From an uncultured Lachnospiraceae bacterium (GTDB lineage: Bacteria; Bacillota; Clostridia; Oscillospirales; CAG-272), in contig CAZCJU010000001.1 in NCBI GenBank assembly GCA_964498965.1, forward strand, positions 38,008-102,007: 64,000 bases of DNA, read 5' to 3'. How positions within the stretch are numbered: position 1 is the stretch's first letter; the number at the start of each line of letters is the position of its first letter. The notes beneath the pieces were generated by a model. That model was not told the DNA's origin, ran no database searches, and was given only the letters and a program-made list of their open reading frames with translations. Of this stretch, positions 21,359 to 37,390 are shown one piece after another. The translations under genes were made by a program, and so were the position numbers.

Positions 21359-21370
21359 TCGATCCCTCCT

Positions 21371-22204: not shown

Positions 22205-22340
22205 AGGCTTCTCGGGAAGCTTCTGTGCGATAACGCCCTCATCCGTCAAGCCTTCAAATCGCCGCCTCCCCCGAAAGAGGACGACTTACGGGGGCGGTTA
22301 CCGCCTTCCCCCGGAGGAGGAAGGCTTACGAAGCGGGGTC
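22205..22340. repeat. REP-like GC-rich hairpin element inside the phage-like cluster
   Basis: gccttccccc-ggag-gaggaaggc hairpin (22303..22325), plus cctcatccgtcaagccttc and ccccgaaagagg words of the family. Lies between the endolysin and fibre genes. Confidence 0.7.
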
Positions 22341-23376
22341 AACGGTTTACTTTTATCAAATGCTCCGTTGCACACCAGGTAGACAGCGATGAGCCGATCT
22401 CGCCCGTTTTTCTGTTCACCTTTCTGCCGAGCAGCACGCACTCCGCACCGTTTTTCAGCACCTTATTACCTCGGGAATCGGCTGTTTTTTCCGCAATATA
22501 ATCGTAATCCCGCACCCATTTCGGAAAATTCGCACTGCCGGGTGCATACGAGCTTTTATCCTCTCGAAGCCGCACGACATCTCCGACCTTTATCGTCGTT
22601 TTTTCATTCGGTATAAGAAGCTTTTGACCGACGAATATCAGATTCGGGTCGGCTATACCGTTATATTCGGCAAGGCACTTATACTCCGTACCGTATTTTT
22701 TCGCCACGGCGTAAAGGGTATCGCCCTTTTTCACGATATACTCCGTCGTTCTCCCGTCTGTTTTTTCATTTTCCTTAAGCGACAGCCTAAAGTACTCGGC
22801 TATAGCCTCCGCTTCGGCTTTTGCGACGAGCTTCCTTTTTTCTCCGTCCGCCATAAATCCGCACTCGGCTTTGTTCGTATGGAAGCCGTGTTCGATGATA
22901 TACGAGTATTTCAAGCCGTTTTTCACGCTTGAGCGGATAACGCCGTAATAATCGAGTATTTCGCCGTTATTCCCCTCATATGTCCTCGTCATAACGCCTC
23001 TCAAATATGTTTTGGACGTATGCTTTCGCATTACCGTCGCTACCGCCTCGCCGAGCTTCACGCCCAGTTTGTCGCTCTCGTAGTTTTTTATGCTTCTGAA
23101 AACGGACACGCCGTGAGCCTTTTCGCTGTTTGCGGCATTCGTATGTAACGATATGAACAGCTCCGAGCCGTTATCCCTCGCTGTCTTTCCTCTTTTTTCG
23201 AGTGTCGGGTCGTCATCGACGCTTTGTCTTGTGACGTAAACGTTCACGTCGGCGTATTTTTCAAGCTCTGCTTTAAGCTCGTATGCCAGCTCGAAAACGG
23301 CACTGCCCTCGTAATAGCCGTCAACGATGCCCTTATTCGTATATCGACCGTGACCGGGATCGAGAGTTATCGTCAT
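22339..23376 (-). CDS. Endolysin: N-acetylmuramoyl-L-alanine amidase (Amidase_3) + LysM + C-terminal binding domain
   Basis: 345 aa. Amidase_3 start ITLDPGHGRYTNKG...ELFISLHTNA...EHGFHTN. LysM motif YIVKKGDTLYAVAKKYGTEYKCLAEYNGIADPNLIFVGQKLLIP. SH3-like tail. Confidence 0.9.
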   Translation of the reverse strand: MTITLDPGHGRYTNKGIVDGYYEGSAVFELAYELKAELEKYADVNVYVTRQSVDDDPTLEKRGKTARDNGSELFISLHTNAANSEKAHGVSVFRSIKNYESDKLGVKLGEAVATVMRKHTSKTYLRGVMTRTYEGNNGEILDYYGVIRSSVKNGLKYSYIIEHGFHTNKAECGFMADGEKRKLVAKAEAEAIAEYFRLSLKENEKTDGRTTEYIVKKGDTLYAVAKKYGTEYKCLAEYNGIADPNLIFVGQKLLIPNEKTTIKVGDVVRLREDKSSYAPGSANFPKWVRDYDYIAEKTADSRGNKVLKNGAECVLLGRKVNRKTGEIGSSLSTWCATEHLIKVNR

Positions 23377-23645
23377 TATTTTCCGTCCTCCGTATCCGTA
23401 ATGTCTTTAATAAGCTCGAACGAGCCGTTCGACGAGAGCGACACAAAAGCTCCGTTCACAAAGCACAGTACAAGCTCTCCCGACGAATACGAGCCGGTAA
23501 AAAAAGCGGCAAGCACGAGAAGCGTGACCGCAACGCCGTAGCTCAGCAATCTTGTCGGGATATGAACGGGAACAAGCTCGTCGAAAAGCTCTTTAAGCAG
23601 CTGCGTAAGCAGTGTGACCGCAACGCACGCTCCCGAAAAGCTCAA
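23376..23645 (-). CDS. Holin-like small membrane protein
   Basis: 89 aa with two hydrophobic segments (ACVAVTLLTQLL; LLSYGVAVTLLVLAAFF) and an acidic tail. Sits between the xhlA-like and amidase genes, and its stop overlaps the endolysin start. The true start is uncertain: TTG in the track, and the frame is open 21 codons further upstream without a canonical start. Confidence 0.5.
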   Translation of the reverse strand: MSFSGACVAVTLLTQLLKELFDELVPVHIPTRLLSYGVAVTLLVLAAFFTGSYSSGELVLCFVNGAFVSLSSNGSFELIKDITDTEDGK

Positions 23646-23739
23646 TATACCGCTCCAATCGGTAAAATTCGCAACATCCGCGATATTCGTAATACTATTC
23701 GTAATATTGATTTCCTTTCTTTATAAACGTCCGACAAGC

Positions 23740-24030
23740 TCACAGCCGAGCGGCGAAAAAGCCTATCAACGCCGAGGTGAGAGCGGAAATTATCGCATTT
23801 ACGAATTTTTCGCTTCGCCTCGTCGGAACGCTTTCGAGCCTGTCTATACGCCCGCCATGCTCGCTTATCGTTTTATTCGTATGCTTCAGCTCCGAGGTCA
23901 GCGTGGTCAATGCCGTATTCATCACTCTAAGCTCCTTTGTCAGTTCCTTTATCTCGTTTATCTGGTGCTGTAAGGATTTAATGCTTTGGGATTGACAGCT
24001 TAACGTGACGGAAATCTCCTCCTCCGTCAT
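23740..24030 (-). CDS. xhlA: XhlA-family protein (lysis-associated, coiled coil + C-terminal TM)
   Basis: 96 aa. Coiled-coil N-terminal part (IKSLQHQINEIKELTKELRVMNTALTTLTSELKHTNKTISEHGGRIDRLE) and a C-terminal TM segment (NAIISALTSALIGFFAARL). The order XhlA-holin-amidase matches the PBSX lysis cassette. Confidence 0.6.
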   Translation of the reverse strand: MTEEEISVTLSCQSQSIKSLQHQINEIKELTKELRVMNTALTTLTSELKHTNKTISEHGGRIDRLESVPTRRSEKFVNAIISALTSALIGFFAARL

Positions 24031-24043
24031 ATGCTCACCGTCC

Positions 24044-25786
24044 TTACGTGCTTGCGAAAAGCACTATTTCGTTCACCGTACATCGTCCGTCCGCCTCATC
24101 GTTTTCCATTCTCAGCTTAACACTGTCGACACCTCGCAGATTCAGTCGCCGTTCGACCGACGACGGTCTGCCCTCACACTCAAACGAAAATCTGTTGAAA
24201 TCCATTGCGGAAAAATCGAATGCCTCACAGCAAAAGCACCCGTCCTCGCCGCATACCTTAGGCACGCCGACATTCGGCGAAACGGTTATTTTGACGTTCG
24301 TATGCGGCTCCGGAATGAGCGAGGCGGAAAGTCGGTAAATGTTTTTTCTGCCGTTCACCCCGAGATCCGCAAACGAGCTTTCCCATACCGCCTTGTATGC
24401 TCGCCCGTCGTCGGTGTACGTACCTTCGCCGAAGCGGTACAAGCCGTTTTCGTTCGAAAAATACACCGTTCCGTCGCAATCGTAAAACCTTTCGGCGTTT
24501 ATCCCGTCGTAAAAATACCACGCCGCACGCCTGTAGTTATATACGCAGATCGTGCCGCCGTAGGCGAGCCACGCCTCGCCCGCACCGGTTGCGTCGAAAA
24601 CGGTACAGTTTTCGAGAAACTCCCTCGTCAGCAGACGATCTACGGGAGATGAGATACGCTGTGCGTTTTTTTCGTCACGCACGTTCGTACCGCTCCAAAC
24701 GTAAACGCCGTCGGGGCTTACGGTAAGCGGTATGTTGTTGACCGGCACGCCGCCGTCCCTTATACAGCCGACCTTGCCGTTGAGCGGAAAGATCGGATAT
24801 GCGTTTTTCGTGTAATCGCCGTCCTCGACGCTCGATTGGGAAATGTACCATGCGTCCTTTTCGGTAAATACCGCAAGCGTCGAATAATGACGCACGAGCG
24901 AGGTGACCGGCGTGCCGTCGCCGACACGAATGAAGTTGTTTACGGGAAAATACATACAGTCCGCTCCCTTGTCCGTCACATCGGAGTAATATATCACATT
25001 GTCGCCGCCGTATACGAAAAGTGCCGAGTCGGTTCGAGAACCGAACGCACAAAAGCTCTTTTCGTAAAACAGACTCCTGTCGGGAAAATTCGGGTCCTTT
25101 AGCGAAAAAGTCACCTCAAGCCCGTCGGGAACCGACGAGGACGGAATGTGCATGAGCGTAAGCGTTCTCTTGCTCCTGTCGTAGCTGTAGCCGTCGGCGG
25201 GCAACGCAAGTCCGTTTTCTACCACGCCGACCACCGATAACGCCTCGGAGGGAAGCACGAAATTCGAGCTTGTGCCGTTCGGCGAATACGAAATTCGAGC
25301 GTAGGGCGACAGGCGGTTGAGCGATTCGAGTGCTATGCCGCCGCCCTCGTTCGGTGCGGTCACCGCCACCTTCGGTATGTACGGCTCGCATTTTCTTATG
25401 TTGTACCCGTCGAAAGTCAGGATATCCTCGCCTCCGACGATGTAAAGCGTGCCGCCGAAAACAAAACAGCTTCTTTTCGTCGTTTCACCCGTGTCGTATT
25501 CGACCGTCGAACCGTCGTCAAGGCTTTTTGCGATCACCGTCGTTCCCGATTGATAAACATACTTGATTCCCCTGCCCATACGTCCGCAATACAGCCCGTT
25601 TGCGTCCGAAATTTCCGCCACACGCTCGTAGCCGCTTCGCTTTTTGAGCTTTCCGTCGTCCGTTATTCGCCAATTACGCATATAAACGGCGTTTTTTACC
25701 TGCGAACCGAGGCGTCGGGTGCAATCCGTGCCGCCGAAATCGTCAAGCGTCATTCTGACGCTCGGCGTTTTTTTGAACAGCATCAT
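24044..25786 (-). CDS. Phage-like structural protein (580 aa; tail/nozzle-like, beta-rich)
   Basis: Position is downstream of the capsid and adaptor-like genes. Beta-rich repetitive sequence with many G/Y/V/T. No enzyme motif recognised. The function is inferred from context only. Confidence 0.45.
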   Translation of the reverse strand: MMLFKKTPSVRMTLDDFGGTDCTRRLGSQVKNAVYMRNWRITDDGKLKKRSGYERVAEISDANGLYCGRMGRGIKYVYQSGTTVIAKSLDDGSTVEYDTGETTKRSCFVFGGTLYIVGGEDILTFDGYNIRKCEPYIPKVAVTAPNEGGGIALESLNRLSPYARISYSPNGTSSNFVLPSEALSVVGVVENGLALPADGYSYDRSKRTLTLMHIPSSSVPDGLEVTFSLKDPNFPDRSLFYEKSFCAFGSRTDSALFVYGGDNVIYYSDVTDKGADCMYFPVNNFIRVGDGTPVTSLVRHYSTLAVFTEKDAWYISQSSVEDGDYTKNAYPIFPLNGKVGCIRDGGVPVNNIPLTVSPDGVYVWSGTNVRDEKNAQRISSPVDRLLTREFLENCTVFDATGAGEAWLAYGGTICVYNYRRAAWYFYDGINAERFYDCDGTVYFSNENGLYRFGEGTYTDDGRAYKAVWESSFADLGVNGRKNIYRLSASLIPEPHTNVKITVSPNVGVPKVCGEDGCFCCEAFDFSAMDFNRFSFECEGRPSSVERRLNLRGVDSVKLRMENDEADGRCTVNEIVLFAST

Positions 25787-25799
25787 AGTTTTCCTCCCG

Positions 25800-26174
25800 T
25801 CAAGAATATACGTCCTTTATCTGCGATATGTCGGCGGGAAGCGAGGCTATGTACCTCGCCCTCGCCGCCTCGTATTCGCTTCTGAGCCTGTCCGAAAGTG
25901 CGGGATTTTCGTCCGCACACAGCAAATACGCAAGCTTTATCGAACATAGCCAGCCAAGCGGCTCGTCAAGCGGAAACGCACCGTCAAGCCCCGAAAACGG
26001 CGACGGCAGTACCGCCGTCCCGCTTTCGCCCGTCGTCCTTTGCAAAACGGACAGCTCGCTTATCACCGCCCGCAGGAGCAATGGCGTCCTCTCCCTCAGC
26101 TCCCGTGCGTTTGCCGTCGTGCTGTCCTCGGAAATGTACGCACAAGCCGTATCGAATATGTCGGACAGCAGCAT
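25800..26174 (-). CDS. Small phage-like head-completion/adaptor-like protein (124 aa)
   Basis: Start ATG 26174 lies 2 nt after the capsid-gene stop (TAA-AA-ATG). The longer track ORF overlaps the capsid gene. Function assigned from position only. Confidence 0.4.
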   Translation of the reverse strand: MLLSDIFDTACAYISEDSTTANARELRERTPLLLRAVISELSVLQRTTGESGTAVLPSPFSGLDGAFPLDEPLGWLCSIKLAYLLCADENPALSDRLRSEYEAARARYIASLPADISQIKDVYS

Positions 26175-26176
26175 TT

Positions 26177-27010
26177 TTACGCCTCCTCGCCGAGCGTAAC
26201 GTCCAAAAGCATAAGCTCCTTGGGGTAAACTATCTTCGCTCCGTAAAGGTGAAGCCCCTTCACCGCATCGGCAAATCTCTTCTCGGGGCGGTATGCCTCG
26301 ACCTCGTTTATCTGCTCCGCAAAGGCTATGGCTCGCTTCGTTCTCGCAAAACATTTATATGCACCGCCGTTTTTGACGATATTGTTCGAAACGTATACCT
26401 TGAAGCCCAAAAACGTACCGATACAGCCTTTGTCAAGCTCGCTCTCGTTGCTCGTGCCGTTCATTATCTTCGCCTTGATTATCTTTGCGGCAACGGCGGG
26501 CGTAACCTCCAAAATTATCTCCTCGTTACCGGCTACGTTGTTTTCGAGCAATGCCCGACGTACCCCGAGGAGCAGATCGATAACTCCGTCCGACGTGAGA
26601 GAATCCGCTTTTACCGTGTTCTCCGCGGATACCGAAGAATAAAGCGAATAAATGTATTTGTCCGCTTCGTCGGATAATGCGGAAGCGGCAATGCTCATCG
26701 CCTCCTGCATGAGCTTGGGCGTGGATTGTGCTTTGTCTATGTCGTCTATCAAAAAGTTGAAGCCCTTTGCCCTGTCGATAACAAGCGAACGCTCCGAATC
26801 CGAAAGCTCCTCCGGAGCTTCCATGTCCGTGTTCTTTTCGTAGTCGAATACACTTATCGGATTGATTCCGATTATCTTTACCGTGTCGCCGATGCTCTTG
26901 ATGTCACCCTCGAAATCCCGACTGCAATTTTTCACGCCGATGTATTCCTTTTCAAGCTCTCTGTAAAGCGTTTCGCTCCATATTTTGGGTATAAAATAAG
27001 AAAGTGCCAT
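26177..27010 (-). CDS. Major capsid-like protein
   Basis: 277 aa. The N-terminus MALSYFIPKIWSETLYRELEKEYIGVKNCSRDFEGDIKSIGDTVKI resembles small P22-coat/HK97-fold capsid families of Firmicutes phages. Sits after the portal and scaffold-like genes. Confidence 0.6.
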   Translation of the reverse strand: MALSYFIPKIWSETLYRELEKEYIGVKNCSRDFEGDIKSIGDTVKIIGINPISVFDYEKNTDMEAPEELSDSERSLVIDRAKGFNFLIDDIDKAQSTPKLMQEAMSIAASALSDEADKYIYSLYSSVSAENTVKADSLTSDGVIDLLLGVRRALLENNVAGNEEIILEVTPAVAAKIIKAKIMNGTSNESELDKGCIGTFLGFKVYVSNNIVKNGGAYKCFARTKRAIAFAEQINEVEAYRPEKRFADAVKGLHLYGAKIVYPKELMLLDVTLGEEA

Positions 27011-27039
27011 TTTTTATCTCCTTTTAAATTTAATTTCAT

Positions 27040-27140
27040 TAAGCCTTCCCCCTTGGGGAAGGTGTCAGCCGAAGTCCCCACTTCGTAAGGCTTCCCCCTT
27101 GGGGGGTAGGTGTCGATCCGAAGGCTTGACGGATGAGGAC
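27040..27140. repeat. REP-like GC-rich hairpin element inside the phage-like cluster
   Basis: ccttcccc-cttg-gggaagg (27044..27062), aaggcttcccccttggggggtagg, and gtcgatccgaaggcttgacggatgaggac, which recurs almost verbatim at 61782..61810. Confidence 0.75.
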
Positions 27141-27153
27141 ATTATCCCGCCTC

Positions 27154-27209
27154 ACATCGATCGTCGATCGTCGAACGTCAATCGTCGAACGTCGAACGTC
27201 AATCGAAAA
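27154..27209. repeat. Tandem array of about eight 7-bp units (WCGTCRA)
   Basis: acatcga tcgtcga tcgtcga acgtcaa tcgtcga acgtcga acgtcaa tcgaaaa. It starts at the stop codon of the 114-aa gene. Confidence 0.85.
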
Positions 27210-27543
27210 AGCCGCCTTGCTCCATGCTTTCGACTATCGCGATATAATTTTCTCTGACCTCTTTATCCGTCATGCACGCAACCTGCTTTGCCGTAAAAAA
27301 GCCGTTTTTGCCGCCGAGGCTTATTTTGCCCGAGCTTTCCCGGCGGTTTTTGCCGTTCACACGCTCCGCCACGCCTCCCAAGCTGTCTTTGTCTATCAAA
27401 TATCTCGCATACGCTTCCTTAAGCGAGCCGCCGTCGGCTACACTTCGCCACACCGTATCGGGTATTGCGTCGGGATCGACCTCGGGATATGCGTCGAAAA
27501 GCTCCTCGATGCTTTTCGATATTTTATCTTCCTTATCGCTCAT
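27199..27543 (-). CDS. Scaffold-like small acidic protein
   Basis: 114 aa, acidic N-terminus. The C-terminal motif FTAKQVACMTDKEVRENYIAIVESMEQGGF resembles phage scaffolding-protein C-termini. Lies between the portal and capsid genes. Confidence 0.4.
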   Translation of the reverse strand: MSDKEDKISKSIEELFDAYPEVDPDAIPDTVWRSVADGGSLKEAYARYLIDKDSLGGVAERVNGKNRRESSGKISLGGKNGFFTAKQVACMTDKEVRENYIAIVESMEQGGFFD

Positions 27544-29116
27544 TTATTGCGTTTCCTCCGTTTTCCGCTTTTTCTTCTTTATTTTTCTCAAGCTCCTCGA
27601 GTAACCCGCCTCTGTCGGGTATTATTCCGTCCGGCAGACGCGACAGATACTGCTCGAAGCTTATAAAACCGCCCGAAAGGAGCTTATCGAGCGTATTTAC
27701 CGTCACCGCAAGCGAATATCGTACTCCCGCACCGACATCGACCTTGCAGCCGATGAGCGAATCGGCGAACGCACGCTTGTCGGGCAAGTGACCTCCCGTA
27801 TGCTCGCCGTTTTCGGTATACGGCAGCAATCGCTCGGGCGGACAATATTCTATAAGCATTTCCGACCAGCTCAACGCCACGTCCTCTATCGCCGCATACA
27901 GGCTCTGACGCAGGCTTTCAAGCGGTATGTCGCTCGCCTCCTGCAAAGCTATTATGGCACTCGTATTATTCGGGCTTACCTCGCCCAGTGCCGTATCCGT
28001 CGCTCCCATAAGCTCTTTCGTGTCACGCATCGTCATCGAAATTATTTCGAGAATGCCGCTCTGCATTTCTCCCGTTCCGATCACCGATGCCGCCGAACGT
28101 ACATCGCCGCCCCGCACGCCTATCGCCTCGCCGACCTCGTTGCTCCACTCGGGTATGAGGCTTTTATCGTATACGACCTTGGAAAACGCCGTATCCGTCA
28201 TGTGCTTCATCACCATGGCGTATGCTTTGTTGATGTATTTCTGATTTTCGATAAGCGACGTTACGGGGGCTTGTCCTATATAGCTGCCTTTCGTCCGCTC
28301 CCATGCGAAAACCGCTATCGGATATCGCTTAAGTCCCGTAGTGCATTCGGCTATCACCGCCTGCCTCGTGCTTTTTTGCCATACGACATGCCCGTTTTCA
28401 TCACGCGAAAACCTTATGAGGTACGTGCAGTTGCTCTCCGTTCCGCTCTCCGTATCGAACAGCTCCCCCGCACCTCTGCCCTCCGGTCTGTCGGCGGTTA
28501 TAAGCGACAAGGTATGCTCATCCGCTCCGTTCCCCTTCGCCTCCCTGCGAAGCGATTCCACCGATGCCCGTCCGCTTATCATCACGTATTCCTGCGACTG
28601 TATATCGTCGCTGTTCACACTTGCCACAAACAGCTCCGTGCTGTCACACAGCACCGTTTTGATATCGCCCGAAAACGGCTGTCCCGTCTGCACATCGGCA
28701 TCCCAATACGTATAAAATACGCCGTTGCCGCTTATCGCCGCATCGAGCAACGCATTTCGTATAAGCACCTCAAGCTTCGATTTGTCGAAGCGATATTCGG
28801 CGTTTTTGTTTAATAACGCTATCCCCTCTCGCCGCTGACGCTTGTAACCGTCCTCCTGCGTGCAAAACAACGCCTCATCGCTGTAATTTATATGTATCGG
28901 CTGTGCCGAAACGGAGCTTATCATGTAATTTATAACACGCTTTATCACGTTGAATACGGGCTTGGGAAGCTCCGCCGAATTTACCCCCGCCCACTGCTCG
29001 CCCCGATAAAAGCGTTCGTTTTCCCGCACACGGGAATACAGACCGAGCTTACGCTTGTATTCCGTTCCCGCTTCGTATTCCTCCCATGCACGTGTCAGCT
29101 TTTCGTTACCGCTCAT
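27533..29116 (-). CDS. Portal protein
   Basis: About 527 aa from ATG 29116 (GGAGAAGG RBS). The N-terminus EYKRKLGLYSRVRENERFYRGEQW is portal-like. Sits immediately after TerL. The 84-codon upstream extension in the ORF track overlaps TerL and is rejected. Confidence 0.7.
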   Translation of the reverse strand: MSGNEKLTRAWEEYEAGTEYKRKLGLYSRVRENERFYRGEQWAGVNSAELPKPVFNVIKRVINYMISSVSAQPIHINYSDEALFCTQEDGYKRQRREGIALLNKNAEYRFDKSKLEVLIRNALLDAAISGNGVFYTYWDADVQTGQPFSGDIKTVLCDSTELFVASVNSDDIQSQEYVMISGRASVESLRREAKGNGADEHTLSLITADRPEGRGAGELFDTESGTESNCTYLIRFSRDENGHVVWQKSTRQAVIAECTTGLKRYPIAVFAWERTKGSYIGQAPVTSLIENQKYINKAYAMVMKHMTDTAFSKVVYDKSLIPEWSNEVGEAIGVRGGDVRSAASVIGTGEMQSGILEIISMTMRDTKELMGATDTALGEVSPNNTSAIIALQEASDIPLESLRQSLYAAIEDVALSWSEMLIEYCPPERLLPYTENGEHTGGHLPDKRAFADSLIGCKVDVGAGVRYSLAVTVNTLDKLLSGGFISFEQYLSRLPDGIIPDRGGLLEELEKNKEEKAENGGNAINER

Positions 29117-29175
29117 TGTTCCTTCTCCCCCCGTCCTCGGGCTGTACCGTAAAGCCGTCGGACTAATGACTATGA

Positions 29176-30483
29176 CTAATAGTATATTATACTGCTTCTG
29201 TTCTCGGCCCGTTTTCGCCTCGCTTCGTACCGCTCCCTTTCCGTCCGAGCCTTTTCCGGTCTTGACATCACAAGATATCTCAACGCCTCCGGCAGGTGCG
29301 TTATCGAATGCGGCTCGCTCGAGCAGTCCTCCGTCCTCGTCTTGTCGTAGGTAAGCAACGACAGACAACGGTACAGCTCGGGACAGGCTCTCGAAATGTA
29401 CAGCTTGCCGCTTCCGCCGTGTATGTATTCTCTAAGCACACGCCAGCCCGGCACACGCCTGTCGTCGGCTCGTATCAGCGGTGCTATGCCGTCAAACGAT
29501 GCCATTATCTCAAAGCCCGACCGACCCGTGTCCTGCCGCCTGTTCCAAAGGTCCGGCGAGGCGGCTATGTATTCGCAGGCGTAAACGGAGCAACGCCTCG
29601 ATATTTCCTCCGCCGCCTCCGATAACGTCAGCCCCGAACGGTAATACTCGTGTATTATGTACAGATTTCCGTCGCTGTCCGCCGTGCCTACGATAAACGC
29701 AAGCATATCAAAGCCGTAGTCAAGACCGCCGAACATTCGCCAATGCTTAGGCGGCGTGAACGGCTCGCAAAGGTGCGTTTCGCCGAGTGAGGGAAAAAAC
29801 TGTCCCTCGAATACGTCCCATTGCCCGTACAACCACGCACGGCGAAGTCCCTCGGGCAAACTCTCCAATTGCTTTATATATTCTCCGTCCTTTTCAAGCA
29901 GTGCTTTGTTGTCGTAGGCACTTGCCTGTATAAACCCGTATTCATCTCCGTCCTCGCCCTGCAAATACCGCCTGTCGATAAATAATCGCTTCACCCACGC
30001 ATGACCGACTCCGCCCGGATTGCACGTCAGATACATTCGCTTCGGAAAACCGTTCGTGCCTCGTAAACATGCCTTGAGCGTCGAAAACTGATACTCCGTC
30101 AGCTGCGTTGCCTCGTCAAGGGCTATAATGTCGTATTCCTGACCTTGATATTGAAGCGTGTCTCCGTCGTCGTTCATGTAGCCCGGCTTGAGCAACGAGC
30201 CGTTCGGAAATCTGAAGCATTTCTCCGTTTCCGAATATTTCACACACCCGCCAAGCTCCGCCCGAAGCGGCATTATGTGATTGTACCTAAGCTCCGGATA
30301 ACTCCGTCGTATTATAAGACACCGTATGCCCGGATAGCGAAAGCATAACAATATCAGCTTTCGCCGCAATGCCCAGCTCTTGCCGCCCCCTCTGCTCCCG
30401 CCGTATGCCGTGTACTTTTTCTTCGAAGCGAAAAACAGCTTTTGCTTCTCGTTCGGCTCGCCCGCCAGTATAAGCTCTCGCAC
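29176..30483 (-). CDS. terL: Terminase large subunit
   Basis: 435 aa. Walker A YGGSRGGGKSWAL, Walker B-like YDIIALDEAT, and a C-terminal RNaseH-like nuclease region (GLDYGFDM...). Confidence 0.9.
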   Translation of the reverse strand: MRELILAGEPNEKQKLFFASKKKYTAYGGSRGGGKSWALRRKLILLCFRYPGIRCLIIRRSYPELRYNHIMPLRAELGGCVKYSETEKCFRFPNGSLLKPGYMNDDGDTLQYQGQEYDIIALDEATQLTEYQFSTLKACLRGTNGFPKRMYLTCNPGGVGHAWVKRLFIDRRYLQGEDGDEYGFIQASAYDNKALLEKDGEYIKQLESLPEGLRRAWLYGQWDVFEGQFFPSLGETHLCEPFTPPKHWRMFGGLDYGFDMLAFIVGTADSDGNLYIIHEYYRSGLTLSEAAEEISRRCSVYACEYIAASPDLWNRRQDTGRSGFEIMASFDGIAPLIRADDRRVPGWRVLREYIHGGSGKLYISRACPELYRCLSLLTYDKTRTEDCSSEPHSITHLPEALRYLVMSRPEKARTERERYEARRKRAENRSSIIYY

Positions 30484-30484
30484 C

Positions 30485-30814
30485 TTATTCGTAATCCCCG
30501 TGCGAGCATATCACATTGATGTCGCCGCCCGTATCCTCGCCGACACCGTAGCCGAACCGCTCCTTCATGTAAAGATTCAAAACGGACGACGATATCCTTT
30601 TCGTGTTCGCATTCAATGCCTCGTCCTCGAATACGGAGTCTATAAGCTCCGCTTCCTCCTTGTTTCTTCGGCAAAGCTCGTCGAATTTTTCACGCGTCAG
30701 GTGCATATATCTCAAATACCCCGCACGGTTCGGTATACGCTCCCGCTCCGCACACGCCTCAACATAATTCTCCACACTTTGCAAAAACCTTTTTCCGCTC
30801 ATCGCCGCATTCAT
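30485..30814 (-). CDS. terS: Terminase small subunit-like protein
   Basis: 109 aa, directly upstream of TerL with a 1-nt gap. The HTH-like N-terminus (FLQSVENYVEACAERERIPNRAGYLRYMHLTREKFDEL) is typical of small terminases. Confidence 0.6.
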   Translation of the reverse strand: MNAAMSGKRFLQSVENYVEACAERERIPNRAGYLRYMHLTREKFDELCRRNKEEAELIDSVFEDEALNANTKRISSSVLNLYMKERFGYGVGEDTGGDINVICSHGDYE

Positions 30815-31005
30815 AATATCCCTCCGTCACAGATAAACTCAAAAAGCCTCTCGGCAAAGCTCTCTAACCCCTCCTCGTCCGCAAGCTCGGCTAAGTCGCT
30901 TACGCACAGCTCGTTTACACATTCTCTGCATATGCCGCCCGTGCAGGTTCGAAGCACGTCCTCTTCGTCCGATTCCCTACAGCAAATCTGACACCTGTTC
31001 GTCAT
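30811..31005 (-). CDS. Cys-rich (zinc-finger-like) 64-aa protein, first gene of the phage-like cluster
   Basis: ATG 31005 with an AAGGAG RBS 6 nt upstream. Sequence MTNRCQICCRESDEEDVLRTCTGGICRECVNELC... contains CxxC...C...CxxC. ATGA overlap with terS. Confidence 0.5.
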   Translation of the reverse strand: MTNRCQICCRESDEEDVLRTCTGGICRECVNELCVSDLAELADEEGLESFAERLFEFICDGGIL

Positions 31006-31339: not shown

Positions 31340-31368
31340 TTGACAAGTTTACATTTTTATGATATCAT
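31340..31368 (+). promoter_or_regulatory. Candidate plus-strand sigma-A promoter (thrE-like operon), facing the phage-cluster promoter
   Basis: TTGACA (31340..31345), 17-nt spacer ending in TGA (extended -10), TATCAT (31363..31368). Confidence 0.5.
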
Positions 31369-31414: not shown

Positions 31415-31443
31415 ATTATACCACATTTTTCCGATTTTGTCAA
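31415..31443 (-). promoter_or_regulatory. Consensus sigma-A promoter driving the phage-like cluster
   Basis: Minus strand: TTGACA (31443..31438), 17 nt, TGG-TATAAT (extended -10, hexamer 31420..31415). Near-identical to the cassette at 37205..37233. Confidence 0.75.
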
Positions 31444-31498: not shown

Positions 31499-32317
31499 AT
31501 GGAAAAATACGATTTCACCGAAATAACCGACCTCGCCGCCTATGCGGGCAAGCTTTTGCTCGCCTCGGGAGCGGATATCGTGCGTGTCGAGGACACGGTA
31601 CGTCACATCATGCACTCCTACGGTGTAGACGATTTCGAGGTATTCACTCTGACCAACGGAATATTTTTGTCCTCTCGGGGCAAGACGGTATCGCTCGGCA
31701 AGGAGATCGAGAGTGCCGACGCGATACGCGATTATTTACGCGTTCGCAACGTACATTTATATTCCACGGATCTCGGCAAGATAGACCGCATAAACACGCT
31801 GTCCAGGCGACTTGAGGGCGGCGGGGTATCGCCGTCGGAGGCATATGCGGAGCTTGAGCGTATCGAGGCGTTGCCGCACCATTCCGTGCTTTTGCGTTTA
31901 CTCGCTTCCGGAGTGGCATCGGGGGCGATATGCTATATGTTCGGCGGCAGTGCGATCGACCTACTGTCGAGCTTCGCCGTAGGCTTCGTCTATTACATTT
32001 TGGCTATAGTGCTTGACGAAACCAAGCTGTCAAGACTGCTGACGAACATAATATGCGGCTTTGCCATAGCCGTATCGGCATACGGGCTTCGCTTTTGCGG
32101 AGTCGATGCCGACGTTGACATGGTCATAATCGGTGCGATAATGCCGCTCGTGCCGGGTGTATCATTCACCAATGCGGTACGGGATCTGGCTTCGGGCGAT
32201 TATATTTCCGGCACGGTACGAATGACGGACGCACTCATAGTCGCCGTCGGAATAGCCGTCGGTGTCGGCAGTGTCGTCGGTCTGCTCGGATTTTTACCCG
32301 GAGGAGGCGGCATATGA
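31499..32317 (+). CDS. Threonine/serine exporter family protein, ThrE-type N-terminal subunit (DUF1212)
   Basis: ATG 31499 with a GGAGAAAAT RBS. MEKYDFTEITDLAAYAGKLLLASGADIVRVEDTVRHIM is typical of the family. Polytopic C-terminal half. Confidence 0.75.
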   Translation: MEKYDFTEITDLAAYAGKLLLASGADIVRVEDTVRHIMHSYGVDDFEVFTLTNGIFLSSRGKTVSLGKEIESADAIRDYLRVRNVHLYSTDLGKIDRINTLSRRLEGGGVSPSEAYAELERIEALPHHSVLLRLLASGVASGAICYMFGGSAIDLLSSFAVGFVYYILAIVLDETKLSRLLTNIICGFAIAVSAYGLRFCGVDADVDMVIIGAIMPLVPGVSFTNAVRDLASGDYISGTVRMTDALIVAVGIAVGVGSVVGLLGFLPGGGGI

Positions 32318-32790
32318 GCGTATTTACGGAATGTCTGCTTCAGGCGTTTGCCGCTTTTGCGGCGACACTTGCGTTTTGCGTGCTTTTCAACGTTCCGTTT
32401 CGCCAATATGCGTTTTGCGGAGCGAACGGAGCGGTAAGCTGGGTCATATACTACTTTTCGGTGAAGCCGTTCGGAGCTTTCGCCGCCACATTTGCGGCAA
32501 CCGTTGCGATAGTGCTTATCTCCCGCATTTCGGCGATATATCGCAAAACGCCCGTCACCGTACTGCTGATACCGGGCATGATACCTCTCGTACCGGGTGC
32601 GGCGATATACCACACGGCATATTATTGCTTCACGGGCGACGTATCCGCCTTTGCCGAATACGGCTTCATGACCGTTAAGATAGCGTTCGCCATAGTTCTC
32701 GGCATAGTCGTCGTGTTCGCACTGCCGTTAAAGCGGCACAATTTCGCAAAGCGTTCCGACATTTCAAAGGGAGGTGATCGAAACGGTTGA
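32314..32790 (+). CDS. Threonine/serine exporter family protein, small subunit (DUF3815-like)
   Basis: 158 aa with 5 hydrophobic segments. ATGA overlap with the preceding gene, the usual pairing. Confidence 0.7.
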   Translation: MSVFTECLLQAFAAFAATLAFCVLFNVPFRQYAFCGANGAVSWVIYYFSVKPFGAFAATFAATVAIVLISRISAIYRKTPVTVLLIPGMIPLVPGAAIYHTAYYCFTGDVSAFAEYGFMTVKIAFAIVLGIVVVFALPLKRHNFAKRSDISKGGDRNG

Positions 32791-33568
32791 TTTTCACATA
32801 CATTCGTGCTTTTCGTTCGATATAATACGGACGGGAGCGTTTCCGCAGGTTCTCGTATCGGCGGCGGAGGAAAAGGGACTCGAAGCCGTATTTCTCACCG
32901 ACCACCTCGAGATAAACGGCGAAACGGAGGGCATATACGCTCCGTTTTGCTTCGCCGAACGAAAAAGGGCGTGCGTTGCGGCAAAAAGATCGGCGAATAT
33001 CCCCGTGATCATCGGAATAGAGCTTGGGCAGGCGACGCAATACCCGTCCTTTGCCGAAACGATCGTAAAGGAAGCCCGCTTCGACTTCGTTTTAGGCTCG
33101 TTGCACAACATCAAGGGTATGCCCGATTTCGCCCTGATCGATTATTCCGACCTCGCTCCCGACGGTTACAACGGGCTGTGGAACGACTATCTCGACGAAT
33201 ATCTCGCCATGACAAAGCTGAAATACATCGATTCCTTCGCACACTTGACATATCCGTTGCGGTATTTTGCGAAAAACGGCTTCGAGCTTGACATACGGCA
33301 AAGCGAAAGCAAGCTGATAAAAATACTGAAAAGCATCATCGCCCGAAAAAAAGCGTTGGAGCTTAATTCCTCGGGCTTTCGGCAGTCGCTCGGCGAAAGT
33401 ATGCCGAACGAATACGTCATAAGCCTTTATTCGCAGCTCGGCGGCAGACTCATAACCACCGGCTCTGACGCACATACCCCGTCCGATATTGCCGCCGATT
33501 TCGACAAACTGGAAGAATTATCGAAAAAATACGAGCTTAAATTACTCGATTGGAGAAAATTTATATGA
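32774..33568 (+). CDS. PHP-family histidinol-phosphatase-like hydrolase
   Basis: MIETVDFHIHSCFSFD is the PHP-domain metal motif. Later motifs SLHN, FAHLTYP and GSDAH. Confidence 0.75.
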   Translation: MIETVDFHIHSCFSFDIIRTGAFPQVLVSAAEEKGLEAVFLTDHLEINGETEGIYAPFCFAERKRACVAAKRSANIPVIIGIELGQATQYPSFAETIVKEARFDFVLGSLHNIKGMPDFALIDYSDLAPDGYNGLWNDYLDEYLAMTKLKYIDSFAHLTYPLRYFAKNGFELDIRQSESKLIKILKSIIARKKALELNSSGFRQSLGESMPNEYVISLYSQLGGRLITTGSDAHTPSDIAADFDKLEELSKKYELKLLDWRKFI

Positions 33569-34041
33569 ACGAGTTGCTTAAATTGCTTGAAAACGACGGA
33601 CGGCTCACACCCGAAATGCTTTCCGTTATGCTGAACAAGGAAGTCGGGGATATAAAAGCCGCCGTCGAAGCCCTTGAAGAGGACGGCACGATAGTCGGCT
33701 ATCAGGCGATCATCGACTGGGATAAGACCGACAGAGAATACGTGACCGCACTCATAGAGCTTAAAATAACGCCGCAAAGAGATCTCGGTTTCGACCGCGT
33801 CGCCGAAAAGATCTATAACTACCCCGAAGTGAAAAGTCTGTACCTCATGTCGGGCGGCTTCGACCTCGCCGTGATCATCGAGGGCAAAACGATGAAAGAG
33901 GTCGCTTATTTCGTTGCCGAAAAACTCGCCCCCATGGAATCGGTCGTTTCGACGGCAACGCACTTCGTGCTTCGCAAGTATAAAGACAAAGGTCTTGTGT
34001 ACGGTCAAAGCGAGGTGGACCTGAGAGGTAATTGTATCTGA
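33565..34041 (+). CDS. Lrp/AsnC-family transcriptional regulator
   Basis: MNELLKLLENDGRLTPEMLSVMLNKEVGDIKAAVEALEEDGTIVGY (wHTH) followed by an RAM-like domain. Confidence 0.8.
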   Translation: MNELLKLLENDGRLTPEMLSVMLNKEVGDIKAAVEALEEDGTIVGYQAIIDWDKTDREYVTALIELKITPQRDLGFDRVAEKIYNYPEVKSLYLMSGGFDLAVIIEGKTMKEVAYFVAEKLAPMESVVSTATHFVLRKYKDKGLVYGQSEVDLRGNCI

Positions 34042-35219
34042 TGGACTATTCCGAAATGTTATCGAAAACGGCGGTCGAGCTTAAGCCGTCTGGCATACGC
34101 AAATTTTTCGATATGCTCGAAGGCATGAAGGACGTTATCTCCCTCACCGTCGGTCAGCCCGACTTTCCCACCCCGTGGCATATAAGAGAAGCGGGAATAA
34201 TATCCCTCGAAAAAGGCTATACCTATTATACGTCGAACAGCGGAACGATGCAGCTGCGTGAGGAGATATGCAAATACCTCTCCCGCCGCTTCGATATGAG
34301 CTACGACCCGAAAAGCGAGATCATAGTCACCGTCGGAGGAAGCGAAGCGATAGACCTCGCGATCAGAGCGATCGTCGAACCCGGAGATGAAGTCATTATA
34401 CCCGAGCCGTGCTTCGTATGCTACGATCCGCTCGTGCGTTTGGCTCACGGCGTCCCCGTACCCGTAAGCACACGTGCCGAGGACGGTTTTATGCTCACCG
34501 CCGAGCAGATCCGCCGAAAGCTCACGAAACGCACCAAAGCGGTGATATTGCCGTTTCCGAATAACCCGACCGGAGCCGTCATGAGCAAGGAGGAGCTTGA
34601 ACGTATCGCACGTCTGCTCGACGGCACGAATATCGCCGTTTTGTCGGACGAGATCTATGCCGAGCTGACCTACGGCAAAAAGCATATCTCACCCGTTCAT
34701 ATCGACGGAATGCGTGAACGGACGATCATCGCAAGCGGATTTTCGAAAGCGTACTCCATGACCGGGTGGCGGCTCGGCTATACTGCGGCCCCCGCCGAAA
34801 TAACAAAGCAAATGCTTAAAATACACCAGTTCGCCGTGATGTGCGCCCCCACCGCAAGCCAGCTTGCCGCCGTTTCGGCAATGCAAAACGGCGACGACGA
34901 TATCGAAATGATGAAAGCCGAATACGACCGCCGCAGACGCTATATAGTAAAAGGTCTGTGCGATGCGGGCTTGCCGTGTGCCGAACCGCAGGGAGCGTTT
35001 TACGTGTTCCCCGACGTGAGCGGCTACGGTATGAGCAGCGAGGAGTTTTGTCAACGCCTGCTGAATGAAAAAGGCGTAGCCATAGTCCCCGGAACGGCGT
35101 TCGGCGAATGCGGCGAGGGCTATGCGAGGATTTCATATGCTTACAGCGTCAAGCATATCTCAAAAGCACTGGAACGTATTGCGGATTTCACCGCCTCGCT
35201 TCGCTCAGAGCGTTCTTAA
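34041..35219 (+). CDS. PLP-dependent class I/II aminotransferase (aspartate/alanine aminotransferase-like)
   Basis: Motifs NPTGAV and the PLP-lysine region SGFSKAYSMTGWRLGY. About 392 aa. Confidence 0.85.
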   Translation: MDYSEMLSKTAVELKPSGIRKFFDMLEGMKDVISLTVGQPDFPTPWHIREAGIISLEKGYTYYTSNSGTMQLREEICKYLSRRFDMSYDPKSEIIVTVGGSEAIDLAIRAIVEPGDEVIIPEPCFVCYDPLVRLAHGVPVPVSTRAEDGFMLTAEQIRRKLTKRTKAVILPFPNNPTGAVMSKEELERIARLLDGTNIAVLSDEIYAELTYGKKHISPVHIDGMRERTIIASGFSKAYSMTGWRLGYTAAPAEITKQMLKIHQFAVMCAPTASQLAAVSAMQNGDDDIEMMKAEYDRRRRYIVKGLCDAGLPCAEPQGAFYVFPDVSGYGMSSEEFCQRLLNEKGVAIVPGTAFGECGEGYARISYAYSVKHISKALERIADFTASLRSERS

Positions 35220-36968
35220 GCGTTGTGCGAGCCTGTCCGTGTAAAAAGCTTTTATGCACGCCTCGTTCGGGTATAACCCGTCGGGCGTGTATTTTTCTTT
35301 GAGTTCGTCGATCTCGTTTATAGGCGGCAGCAGCGGTGCGAAATCTATGTATTCCACACCCCATTTTTCCAAGATCCTCTTAAACAGCTCCCTGCGTTCG
35401 CTCCGTTCGGCGGCAGGCAACGATATAAACGCCATGCAAAGCCGCTTTTCGGGATATTTCATAACAAGCATATATAAAAACTCCTCAAGACCGCCCGCCG
35501 AGGTCGATATATCGTTGTCCGTACCGTATGAATCGCTCATTTCACCGAGAACAGCCGAATTTACATAGTCGCATATGCCGTCGTCAAACAGTATCGTATC
35601 CCCGTCTACATCGCCCTTGATAACTCGCTCCGTGTATGAACGACGTGCGGACACGTCGGCATATCCGTTGCCGTCGGTGAGAAATTCTTCGTATTCCGCC
35701 CCCGCCGATATCGCCGCAGCCCTTGCCCATGAGTCCGGACAACAGGAAAAACAGAATACCTTTTTGCCGTATAAAGGCGAAACGAGATTTACGTCCGCTC
35801 TGTACTCAACCTCAATATCGTTGCCCGAACAGGATATAACGTCCGACTCCGATCTCAATTCGCCGAGCGAACAGGCACATTCCTCCTCGACAGGCTGCGT
35901 GTACTCGTAGTAGATCTTAAGTCCCTCGCCGCTTTCGTACTTCGATACGCAAAACGACTTGAATTCGCTTACCCCGTCGCAGCCCGCCTCGCCAACGGTG
36001 AAATATACATAATCGTCCGATCCGCCGTACATCATGCCGGCTACCGCCTTTTCCGGATCCCGTGCATCGGGCGTGGTGACGAAATCGGGTGAAGCAAAAC
36101 ACCCCGTCACCGATATCTTCGAAAACGACCTCTTGTTTACTTTGACGCATTCCGTGTTCTTGTATTGTCCGTCACCGTGCGAAACTATGTTAAACGTCCT
36201 CGTGCTTCGCCCGTAAACACCGTCGGCGTGGTACAGCGAACCGCCGTCGCATATGACCTCGCCCGACGATATGCGACGCATCAGCTTGCCCGATACCGCA
36301 TCGTAGGTGTCGCATACACCGCCGAGAGAACGTAATACGACCTCCCGCTCAAGCGGATATTCGACATCGCCCGCAGTCACGGAATCTATGACCGAAGCCG
36401 TTCCGCTTCCGCTTCCGAAAACTATAAGCTTCGTCGGCTTGCACGGAAATACCCCTCCGCTCGGTGCGACCCGCTTGCCGAACGCACGACGATAATATGC
36501 GTTCGAATATTTCGTAAGCTCCTCGGTGCTTATCTTGCTCTCGTCGTATCGCTCGCTCAATTCCCGACAGGCGGCAGTGCTTTTTTCGCATTCGCTCACC
36601 GCCGCCTCGCATAGCTGCGTAAGCTGCGTGTATACCCCGTCCTCGGGTAAAAGTAACTCGCCCTCACCGTCGATAACACCCGGCTCGCACCTGACCTCGA
36701 TCGCCGTGCTTGTACGCAAGCCCGCCGCATATACGCCGACGGTTATACTCGGCGGGTATATTATCCCGCAAGGTACTTTCGCCTCGCCGTCCTTGTTCAA
36801 TACGATGTCAACGTATTTCCCCCCGTTCGATATGCGTGCGGTCTTTATCCGACCGTCCCATTCTCCGTCAAACGAAAATGCGAATACGTAGTCGCCGTTG
36901 CCCGAAACTATCGCTTCGTTCCCCTCCCGACTTATCCGCTTCTGTGCAATATTGAATTTTAATACCAC
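35205..36968 (-). CDS. Tail-fibre/tailspike-like protein with a C-terminal SGNH/GDSL-type esterase-like domain, SOS-box controlled
   Basis: 587 aa. GTG start 7 nt after an AAGGAG RBS. The N-terminus (FAFSFDGEWDGRIKTARISNGGKYVDIVLNKDGEAKVPCGIIYPPSITVGVYA) resembles the Ig-like N-domain of Firmicutes phage fibre/baseplate proteins. The C-terminal part has SGNH-like blocks (VFCFSCCPDS..., ILFDDGICDY, YTPDGLYPNEA). The gene ends 15 nt inside the convergent aminotransferase gene. Confidence 0.55.
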   Translation of the reverse strand: MVLKFNIAQKRISREGNEAIVSGNGDYVFAFSFDGEWDGRIKTARISNGGKYVDIVLNKDGEAKVPCGIIYPPSITVGVYAAGLRTSTAIEVRCEPGVIDGEGELLLPEDGVYTQLTQLCEAAVSECEKSTAACRELSERYDESKISTEELTKYSNAYYRRAFGKRVAPSGGVFPCKPTKLIVFGSGSGTASVIDSVTAGDVEYPLEREVVLRSLGGVCDTYDAVSGKLMRRISSGEVICDGGSLYHADGVYGRSTRTFNIVSHGDGQYKNTECVKVNKRSFSKISVTGCFASPDFVTTPDARDPEKAVAGMMYGGSDDYVYFTVGEAGCDGVSEFKSFCVSKYESGEGLKIYYEYTQPVEEECACSLGELRSESDVISCSGNDIEVEYRADVNLVSPLYGKKVFCFSCCPDSWARAAAISAGAEYEEFLTDGNGYADVSARRSYTERVIKGDVDGDTILFDDGICDYVNSAVLGEMSDSYGTDNDISTSAGGLEEFLYMLVMKYPEKRLCMAFISLPAAERSERRELFKRILEKWGVEYIDFAPLLPPINEIDELKEKYTPDGLYPNEACIKAFYTDRLAQRLRTL

Positions 36969-37017
36969 GCCTTAACTCCTTAATAAATCACTTTGTATAA
37001 AAATCTTCCCGTCCTAC

Positions 37018-37031
37018 CGAACATTTGTTCG
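37018..37031. promoter_or_regulatory. LexA (Cheo/SOS) box
   Basis: CGAACATTTGTTCG, 50 nt upstream of the GTG start at 36968. Confidence 0.75.
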
Positions 37032-37040
37032 CATATTTTT

Positions 37041-37162
37041 CGAAACCGTCGCTCCCCTCGACTTATCCGTTTTTCACAATACCGAATTTCAATATCTCGC
37101 CTTAACCGACTAAACCCCACTTTGCATATAAAACCTGCCGGCTTTGCCGAACATTTGTTCGC
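37041..37162. repeat. Decayed tandem duplicate of the 5' end, RBS and LexA box of the tail-fibre-like gene
   Basis: 37041..37162 aligns with 36903..37032 at roughly three-quarters identity by eye. Shared strings: cgaaac..tcgc..tcccctc.gacttatccg...caata..gaattt.aata...cgccttaac...cacttTG.ATA.AAA.CT..CCG....CCGAACATTTGTTCGC. The upstream copy has GAG in place of the GTG start and an in-frame stop. Confidence 0.75.
37148..37161. promoter_or_regulatory. LexA (Cheo/SOS) box
   Basis: CGAACATTTGTTCG, part of the duplicated unit. Confidence 0.75.
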
Positions 37163-37180
37163 CAACTTCCCGAAGAAAAG

Positions 37181-37194
37181 AGAACATTTGTTCT
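37181..37194. promoter_or_regulatory. LexA-like box (AGAAC-N4-GTTCT) just downstream of the promoter
   Basis: AGAACATTTGTTCT: the GAAC-N4-GTTC core is intact but the flanking bases differ from consensus. It occupies the same position relative to the -10 as box 31389..31402. Confidence 0.65.
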
Positions 37195-37204
37195 CGCATA
37201 TTAT

Positions 37205-37233
37205 ATTATACCACATTTTGACGGATTTGTCAA
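37205..37233 (-). promoter_or_regulatory. Consensus sigma-A promoter, second copy of the SOS cassette
   Basis: Minus strand: TTGACA (37233..37228), 17 nt, TGG-TATAAT (hexamer 37210..37205). The string attatattataccacatttt...gat(t)ttgtcaa is shared with 31411..31443. Confidence 0.75.
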
Positions 37234-37385: not shown

Positions 37386-37390
37386 GCGAT

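Follow-up and report, generated by a model that had tools for sequence, protein, structure and literature searches.

A 64,000-basepair stretch of contig CAZCJU010000001.1 (assembly GCA_964498965.1, from an uncultured Lachnospiraceae bacterium), referred to below as the window, contains a phage-derived gene cluster and, on the far side of a five-gene operon, a gene for a 587-amino acid (aa) protein of phage fibre type that is preceded by a promoter of its own. The locus raises the question of whether this gene belongs to the particle that the cluster appears to encode and, if so, how two separate transcription units would be expressed together. The best explanation, to which we assign a probability of roughly 0.62, is that the gene would encode an appendage (of the fibre or receptor-binding type) of a particle made by the neighboring cluster, which resembles a gene transfer agent (GTA), and that it would be expressed from its own promoter, kept shut by LexA. 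Relatives are denoted below by locus handles (L001 and so on) and by protein handles (P0001 and so on).

Two promoters and their LexA boxes

The regulatory elements at the two loci are as follows.

37205..37233, minus strand: promoter of the fibre-type gene (TTGACA, 17-nt spacer, TATAAT, TGG extended −10; 12/12 match)
31415..31443, minus strand: promoter of the main cluster, with the layout seen at the fibre promoter; kept in 11/11 close relatives
37182..37193: LexA box 1 (GAACAAATGTTC), 3' of the −10 and covering the expected transcription start; an equivalent box is found in orthologues and paralogues
37149..37160: LexA box 2 (CGAACAAATGTTCG); a second box at ~30 nt spacing is also found in L001 and L011
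37019..37030: LexA box 3, which arose from box 2 through a leader duplication, 50 nt 5' of the start codon
31047..31401: four LexA boxes of the cluster leader
36915..37174, minus strand: tandem duplication of ~130 bp in the fibre leader, found by internal sequence comparison (spacing 130–131)

The pattern TTGACA-N14-TGNTANAAT had two matches in the entire 64-kb window, both on the minus strand, at 37233–37205 ahead of the fibre-type gene and at 31443–31415 ahead of the cluster. Extended −10 promoters matching at 12/12 positions (TTGACA-17-TGGTATAAT) likewise numbered two between positions 19500 and 38500, and these were the same pair. The two promoter stretches are 84% identical across 38 nt, with matches at 10 of the 14 spacer positions. 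The exact sequence GAAC-N4-GTTC occurs seven times in the window against an expectation of 1.66, a count that 0 of 100 shuffles reached, and all seven boxes are grouped downstream of the two promoters (with starts at 31390, 31315, 31288 and 31047 at the cluster, and at 37182, 37149 and 37019 at the fibre gene). A second promoter and LexA-operator cassette, as claimed by an earlier reading of the letters alone (the original prediction), therefore exists. Its claim that the box sits at the same offset in both copies is correct to within 2 nt, the distance from the −10 to the start of the first box being 11 nt at the fibre gene and 13 nt at the cluster. The three exact boxes between the fibre −10 and the start codon agree with the Gram-positive Cheo-type operator, CGAAC-N4-GTTCG.

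The start-proximal boxes of both leaders lie in a further homologous stretch (31044–31086 versus 37016–37058, 77% identity). The fibre leader is long (~235 nt) because the tandem duplication doubled a segment with box 2, the ribosome-binding site and the first codons. Of the two copies, the upstream one (37045–37174) holds box 2 together with a decayed ribosome-binding site and start (GAG for GTG, and an early stop), and the downstream one (36915–37044) holds box 3 and the real ribosome-binding site and start. The duplication is absent from the orthologues in L010 and L011, where the leaders are 75 nt in length. When eight cassettes from five genomes were aligned, TTGACAAA...GTGGTATAAT was invariant, and a LexA box was located 7–13 nt downstream in seven of the eight.

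The cluster leader (360 nt) also contains G-rich, AGGGGAGGCTTACGA-like direct repeats at 31118–31266, in which 19-nt copies are 95% identical and 31-nt copies 81% identical. A search of 30000–38000 against Rfam, which included this repeat region, returned no known RNA. The cluster leader of L011 is much shorter than that of the window.

A modular protein of phage fibre type

The gene and the domains of its product are as follows.

35205..36968, minus strand: gene for the 587-aa fibre-type protein (GTG start behind AAGGAG; PHROGs matches)
36654..36968, minus strand: N-terminal beta-rich domain of the phage fibre anchor type (aa 1–105; eight strands)
36504..36638, minus strand: helical stalk (aa 111–155), probably a coiled coil (helices 111–140 and 148–155; low confidence as a monomer)
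35784..36473, minus strand: middle domain (aa 166–395), rare, common only to P0002–P0004 and, weakly, to the shorter paralogues P0007 and P0009; poorly modelled
35208..35783, minus strand: C-terminal SGNH-fold domain (aa 396–587; Foldseek match to 7bxd with E = 5e-8 and TMt 0.70; degenerate catalytic set)

The protein matched two PHROGs profiles, phrog_5240 ('tail fiber protein', 1.1e-7, aa 416–586) and phrog_19695 (1.2e-7, aa 1–86), which its orthologues and relatives match with scores up to 1e-64. No Pfam family was found above threshold for the full-length protein, and its N-terminal domain had no Pfam match and no PDB sequence match. A structure model gave a beta-rich N-terminal domain and a C-terminal SGNH fold. 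This model was built on 13 full-length relatives (a single-sequence AlphaFold model gave a pLDDT of 36 and was not used), and its pLDDT was 81–90 for residues 1–100 and 70–93 for residues 400–587.

About 120 of the best 150 HMMER matches cover only residues 1–130 and then continue into varied C-terminal parts; the N-terminal domain sits at the matched protein's own N-terminus in 119 of 130 matched segments. About 44 matches cover only residues 400–587, mostly at their own C-terminus. The N-terminal domain is carried by more than 700 phage or prophage proteins, and the three gene contexts that were examined (L007 and L009 among them) are all prophage structural regions, with the gene located after tape-measure and distal tail genes, between lysis and terminase genes, or between MuF and scaffold genes. 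The best full-length matches in BFVD are phage proteins named hydrolase, GDSL lipase, collagen-repeat and tail fiber, and many members of the family bear collagen or coiled-coil stalks. Neither a signal peptide nor a membrane segment was found in the 587-aa protein, which makes assembly in the cytoplasm plausible. The gradient of identity along the orthologues is modest (71/42/39% for the N-terminal domain versus 59/34/32% for the C-terminal domain). A scan of genome contigs with the fibre protein alone gave no match, and a further large homologue search (alignment A6) returned only P0001 and P0002.

The predicted product is a modular phage fibre-type protein, with a conserved N-terminal anchor and swappable distal modules. 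The assignment as a phage fibre is thus upheld; its placement on the tail is not, a head fibre or another appendage being equally possible.

An SGNH fold without its catalytic residues

Model residues 400–587 matched 7bxd, 3dc7 and 4nrd in Foldseek (E = 5e-8 to 1e-5, TMt 0.63–0.74), and the family profile matched two solved virion tail proteins, 80alpha gp59 (7e-16) and the SGNH protein of podovirus Andhra (3e-8). More canonical relatives (P0005, P0010, P0023 and P0083) pass Pfam PF13472; the 587-aa protein does not.

The motifs were compared in an alignment of full-length two-domain proteins that included canonical relatives (alignment A4). Block I reads SCCPD in place of the canonical GDSI, with Ser replaced by Cys; block III reads DGICD in place of GGVND, with Asn replaced by Cys; and block V reads DGLYPN in place of DGWHPN, with His replaced by Tyr. 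At these Ser/Asn/His positions, the residues of the three orthologues are Ser/Cys/His, Tyr/Tyr/Thr and Lys/Gly/Ile. The original prediction had pointed to an SGNH/GDSL-like C-terminus, citing two peptides (ILFDDGICDY and PDGLYPNEA) that the open reading frame does contain, and had named the product an esterase. The fold is present by modelling and by Foldseek, and the catalytic Ser, Asn and His are lost; since these residues are not conserved (Cys, Cys and Tyr here, and variable among the orthologues) and no Pfam call was obtained, the name esterase is unsupported.

That the catalytic set drifts while the fold stays points to a binding role. We consider it more likely, on these alignments, that the C-terminal domain is a binding pseudo-enzyme than an active esterase, and its distal end most likely would bind a surface glycan rather than cleave one. 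The locus would then be an example of an SGNH domain retained as a probable binding module after catalytic loss.

The neighboring phage-derived cluster

20414..31005, minus strand: phage-derived cluster of ~10.6 kb

The cluster encodes, in order, a 64-aa Cys-rich protein, TerS (gp3-like), TerL, portal, p114, capsid, p124, p580, p96, p89, an amidase-LysM endolysin, p252 and p314. The portal is of the P22/podovirus type and the major capsid protein is a 277-aa protein of the HK97 type, which matches PF25209/phrog_267 and has no NCBIfam model; the only NCBIfam match in the cluster was a sub-threshold one, of TerL to the PBSX-family terminase model. The tail or virion protein p580 is homologous to a virion protein of Pagevirus (Bacillus podoviruses) that is encoded there between tailspike and tail-fibre genes. 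The small membrane proteins p96 and p89 are holin-like. The closest cultured-phage relatives of the capsid protein are those of the phiCP34O group, in which an SGNH protein is encoded directly after the capsid gene. No PDB sequence match was found for p580, p252 or the portal, and p252 and p314 had no match in cultured phages.

The cluster thus covers head, packaging, tail and lysis functions, and no integrase, repressor or replication/primase gene was found among the annotated open reading frames between ~18.5 and 42.5 kb. The lack of an integrase and of a replication/primase module sets the cluster apart from capsid-forming phage satellites (cf-PICI type). The annotated flanking genes are of host type (GT8, AMP-binding, Ser/Thr kinases), and across species the cluster keeps the same chromosomal position and diverges as host genes do, as expected for vertical inheritance. 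Because it is small, has no mobility or replication genes, occupies a fixed chromosomal position and shows host-like divergence, the cluster looks, from its gene content and history, GTA-like or domesticated rather than like a prophage or a satellite.

The two genes that follow the endolysin, p252 and p314, are syntenic with the cluster in at least 10 relatives and probably encode further components of the particle or cluster. The N-terminus of p252 (in the region 20414–22129) reads LPDSPASPDYTPQALKAKFDE and is fibre-like, and is followed by a glycine-rich domain with a weak match to PF21722; p314 is a K/E/A-rich coiled-coil protein. The G+C content is 52–53% in the cluster, the intervening operon and the fibre gene (20414–37233), as against 48.5–49.7% in the 20-kb and 27-kb flanks.

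Conservation of the two loci

The closest orthologue of the fibre-type protein is 63% identical and is encoded on a 5.8-kb contig (L001), with the same five genes behind it and two LexA boxes ahead of it; the contig ends within the LexA-box region on the cluster side. The full arrangement is present both in GCA_965337645.1 (fibre 35% identical) and in a metagenome-assembled genome (MAG) labelled Lachnospiraceae (34–38%). It consists of the fibre gene, then on the opposite strand (aminotransferase, Lrp) PHP-ThrE-ThrE, and then the cluster, with both promoters and the LexA boxes kept. Overall, the linkage between fibre gene and cluster is kept in four lineages. The fibre promoter is kept in L010/L015, L011, L100, L101, L104 and L105, and at least one LexA box follows it in each of these and in L001. 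As had been described, the cassette precedes a gene of phage fibre type that has a transcription unit of its own, apart from the head and packaging cluster, and relatives keep this arrangement; the description of the locus as remote does not fit, since only 4.2 kb separate the fibre gene from the cluster promoter and the synteny is conserved.

Across the genomes with the full arrangement, TerL is 73–77% identical and the capsid protein 80–88%, as against 32–34% for the fibre, which marks the fibre as the fast-evolving part. Fast divergence of a fibre against slow divergence of TerL and capsid is the usual pattern of a receptor-binding protein. The flanking host genes diverge to a degree comparable with TerL and capsid (Lrp 88–91%, PHP 52–73%).

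Capsid relatives, scanned with one genome per species, were found in at least 362 species genomes, and the best 80 all belong to uncultured Clostridia, Oscillospiraceae, 'Ruminococcus' and Flemingiibacterium MAGs from the animal or human gut. In the closest tier (capsid at least 68% identical; 12 loci, 11 of which have upstream sequence), a divergent ThrE gene, a TTGACAAA...TGTGGTATAAT promoter and LexA boxes are found upstream of TerS in 11 of 11. In the more distant tier, LexA boxes are absent from most loci. A fibre gene adjoins the cluster only in the window's own sub-lineage.

Shorter paralogues of the fibre are found in a two-gene unit in L100 (10001–11838), L101, L104 (4728–6550) and L105. 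The first gene encodes a 454–474-aa paralogue with the N-terminal and middle domains and no SGNH domain, and the second a CBM5/12 protein of 152–157 aa. The absence of the SGNH domain and the pairing with a CBM5/12 protein fit a carbohydrate-binding role of the distal end of the 587-aa protein. In L100 and L101 the unit lies among housekeeping and sporulation genes (DHDPS, QueA, GerA, SpoIIP), and the 10 kb around it contain no capsid genes. In MAG JAZKZC01 the cluster is on contig 169 (L019) and the paralogue (454 aa) with its CBM5/12 gene on contig 37 (L104), where unrelated genes for large surface proteins lie on either side of the pair and the same promoter and LexA box precede it.

A related mini-cluster without LexA boxes is found in MT836592.1 (L006, 9588 bp; GenBank 'UNVERIFIED Bacteriophage sp.', human faecal) and in L098. 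Its gene order in L006 is TerS, TerL, portal, scaffold-like, capsid, two small genes and a 642-aa tail protein. An assignment of MT836592.1 to Faecalibacterium was rejected, its sole close relative being a Clostridia MAG; rather than a true phage, the record may represent a GTA-like locus on the chromosome of a Clostridia MAG that was recovered as phage. An extra exact GAAC-N4-GTTC occurs within coding sequence near the TerL–portal junction at a conserved position in six relatives (~2165–2185 nt downstream of the TerS start in L020–L025), and also at 15724 in L011. This box is probably kept by the protein sequence.

A proposed model and its alternatives

The sequences show the motifs and how these are conserved, how the domains are related, the synteny, and the co-occurrence of the two parts at separate loci. 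On this basis we infer that LexA would bind both leaders, that the two units would be co-induced, that the 587-aa protein would be incorporated into the particle and serve in adsorption, and that the cluster is of GTA nature. Read most simply, the fibre gene and the cluster belong to a single regulon under LexA repression, whose products would build a particle and lyse the cell after DNA damage.

In an undamaged cell, LexA dimers would occupy the start-site box and the downstream boxes of each leader (three and four boxes in all at the fibre gene and the cluster, respectively). Upon DNA damage, active RecA would cause LexA to cleave itself, and both promoters (that of the fibre gene being of a strong sigma-A type) would fire together. 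Capsid, portal, terminase, tail protein, fibre, holin and endolysin would thus be made in the same cells. The fibre would dock via its conserved N-terminal beta domain and oligomerise via the helical stalk, displaying its fast-evolving distal part, of which the SGNH-fold end is most likely glycan-binding.

Several observations weigh against this model. Promoters resembling TTGACAA...TGTG.TA.AAT are also found at unrelated genes in L012 and L100, and the likeness of the two promoters is partly that of a generic strong-promoter consensus. LexA boxes bracket the promoter of the intervening thrE operon as well (see below), so a box alone does not mark a particle gene. No fibre gene was found in the ~2.7–10 kb of upstream sequence of the nine close relatives L012–L014 and L020–L025, and their assemblies returned no fibre homologue in a search with narrow peptide patterns, which is weak evidence of absence. 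A remote fibre copy was found for one further MAG only, a link that holds only if the MAG was binned correctly. The cluster holds a fibre candidate of its own, p252. The cluster is podovirus-like, in contrast to the siphovirus-like or head-module surroundings in which relatives of the N-terminal domain occur, and no shared docking partner was detected. Finally, the particle is a prediction from the sequence of an uncultured MAG lineage.

If the 587-aa protein is a particle protein, it might instead be a head fibre or a capsid decoration, with its N-terminal domain seated on the capsid lattice and its stalk presenting the glycan-binding end, a form for which head fibres of the phi29 gp8.5 type are the comparison. 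The gene for the N-terminal domain in L009, located between a MuF gene and scaffold/capsid genes, would agree with this, as would the SGNH gene directly 3' of the capsid gene in the phiCP34O group and the collagen or coiled-coil stalks of many family members. We regard it as unlikely, given that the corresponding gene in L007 follows tape-measure and distal tail genes and sits beside lysis genes, that phiCP34O gp13 is without the N-terminal domain, and that the solved SGNH virion proteins matched by the family are tail components. (That gp13 might share the N-terminal domain was considered and rejected on comparison.)

An improbable account is that the gene is an orphan of another, decayed prophage or an independent SOS gene without a tie to the cluster, its promoter having come to resemble that of the cluster by convergence. 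The paralogues that lie amid housekeeping genes in L100 and L101, the missing neighboring fibre in most cluster relatives and the consensus-like promoters elsewhere in the same genomes would all be expected of such a gene. Its reading frame and cassette are nevertheless intact in orthologues down to 32–35% identity, the linkage to the cluster persists in four lineages, the spacer matches and the second homologous leader stretch join the two loci of the window, and a paralogue and a cluster occur together in JAZKZC01.

Very improbable is an SOS-induced carbohydrate or peptidoglycan O-acetyl esterase that would aid lysis or remodel the producer's wall: the C-terminal fold is that of SGNH proteins, canonical relatives pass PF13472 and the same domain is found in 80alpha gp59, a tail-associated lysin of a staphylococcal phage, but Cys, Cys and Tyr stand at the positions of the nucleophile, the oxyanion Asn and the His, which vary again among orthologues, no Pfam domain and no export signal were found in the 587-aa protein, and the paralogues drop the SGNH domain entirely and pair with a CBM5/12 protein. 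An orphan gene, a lytic esterase and convergent promoters are possible accounts, and each fits the conservation and linkage less well than an appendage of the cluster's particle.

Comparison with known systems

The original prediction knew of no dispersed loci of this kind for Firmicutes defective phages. For its central idea, a host-recognition component of a Firmicute particle that is encoded away from the main cluster, a precedent with experimental support is in fact published: FpGTA of Faecalibacterium prausnitzii forms capsids of ~40 nm that contain ~8.5–9 kb of host DNA, and is encoded by operon I (10.5 kb: TerS, TerL, portal, scaffold, capsid and tail nozzle) and, 125 kb away, by operon II (5.5 kb: fibre, receptor-binding and lysis genes) (Borodovich et al., Nat Commun 2026, PMC12946183). 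Mass spectrometry of the particles identified the SGNH/GDSL protein of operon II, together with an abundant protein annotated as 'TolA' (PMC12946183). The window resembles FpGTA in coming from a gut anaerobe of the Firmicutes (Oscillospirales), in having a structural operon of ~10 kb that includes podovirus-type tail genes but lacks genes for integration or replication, and in placing further structural genes at a second locus; 'TolA' may be compared with p314. It differs in the family names of its capsid protein, which are PF25209/phrog_267 as against N4-gp56 for FpGTA, the window's capsid protein having no match to the NCBIfam family after which that of FpGTA is named, in its lysis genes, which are in the main cluster rather than in operon II, and in its second locus, which is a single gene 4 kb away. 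LexA boxes are present at both loci of the window, and neither the FpGTA paper (PMC12946183) nor a related 2026 preprint reports a LexA operator or a shared promoter. By its layout, then, the window resembles the two-locus arrangement of FpGTA and would add a regulatory link between the loci. Among gut Ruminococcaceae and Oscillospiraceae, the packaging of host DNA in a GTA-like manner is reported to be common, and Faecalibacterium is the only case in which a genetic locus was identified.

In RcGTA of Rhodobacter capsulatus, a vertically inherited element, head-spike, tail-fibre and other adsorption genes also lie outside the main structural cluster and share its regulation (Hynes et al. 2016, PMC5026251). 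Differences from the window are that RcGTA is alphaproteobacterial and has a siphovirus-like particle. Its control is exerted via CtrA, GafA and quorum sensing, and not via LexA boxes at each promoter.

The PBSX-type defective prophages of Bacillus are likewise chromosomal and phage-derived, and form particles upon DNA damage that package host DNA as the producer lyses, as would be the case here. PBSX is myovirus-like, ~28 kb in length, encoded at a single locus and controlled by an Xre repressor. As to the fibre itself, 80alpha gp59 (PDB 6v8i) and the Andhra SGNH protein (PDB 8egr) have the same C-terminal domain family and are both virion tail components; they differ in their N-terminal parts, and the window protein and its three orthologues have a degenerate catalytic set.

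The window adds a second element family, apparently distinct from the first, whose capsid protein has relatives in hundreds of species-level genomes. It also offers a concrete mechanism of control, in which LexA boxes at each transcription unit lead one to expect induction by DNA-damaging drugs, and a sequence signature for locating scattered components. We suggest, tentatively, that a podovirus-derived, LexA-wired GTA family may be widespread in uncultured gut Clostridia/Oscillospirales, with dispersed parts that share one cassette. If so, the cassette could be used as a genomic tag for every part of the particle (the main cluster, the fibre, and the pairs of fibre and CBM5/12 genes), and a fast-evolving pseudo-esterase fibre would set which gut cells receive DNA after DNA damage.

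The intervening thrE operon

31499..35219, plus strand: operon of five genes between the two loci (ThrE, ThrE_2, PHP, Lrp/AsnC and a class I/II aminotransferase)
31340..31368, plus strand: putative promoter of the thrE operon (TTGACA-17-TATCAT, with TG), flanked by LexA boxes

The five plus-strand genes between the two loci were confirmed as predicted, and occur in the same order in L001 and L015; L011 has only PHP, ThrE and ThrE. The operon is not a neutral spacer: its own putative promoter lies between LexA boxes and faces the cluster promoter. The two promoters are ~50 nt apart, and their transcripts would overlap in antisense. This face-to-face layout is conserved in L001 (5690–5780) and in L012–L014 (around 9200–9370), pointing to transcriptional interference or to SOS control that extends to the thrE–PHP operon.

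The fibre and aminotransferase genes converge with a 15-nt overlap of their 3' ends at 35205–35219, as they do in L001 and L010; such a tail-to-tail overlap leaves no space for a terminator. At the other end of the operon, the split ThrE/ThrE_2 exporter pair (31499–33568) is the divergent neighbor of the cluster in 11 of the 11 close relatives with upstream sequence, and the ThrE neighbor is kept even where no fibre gene is nearby (among L011–L015 and L020–L025).

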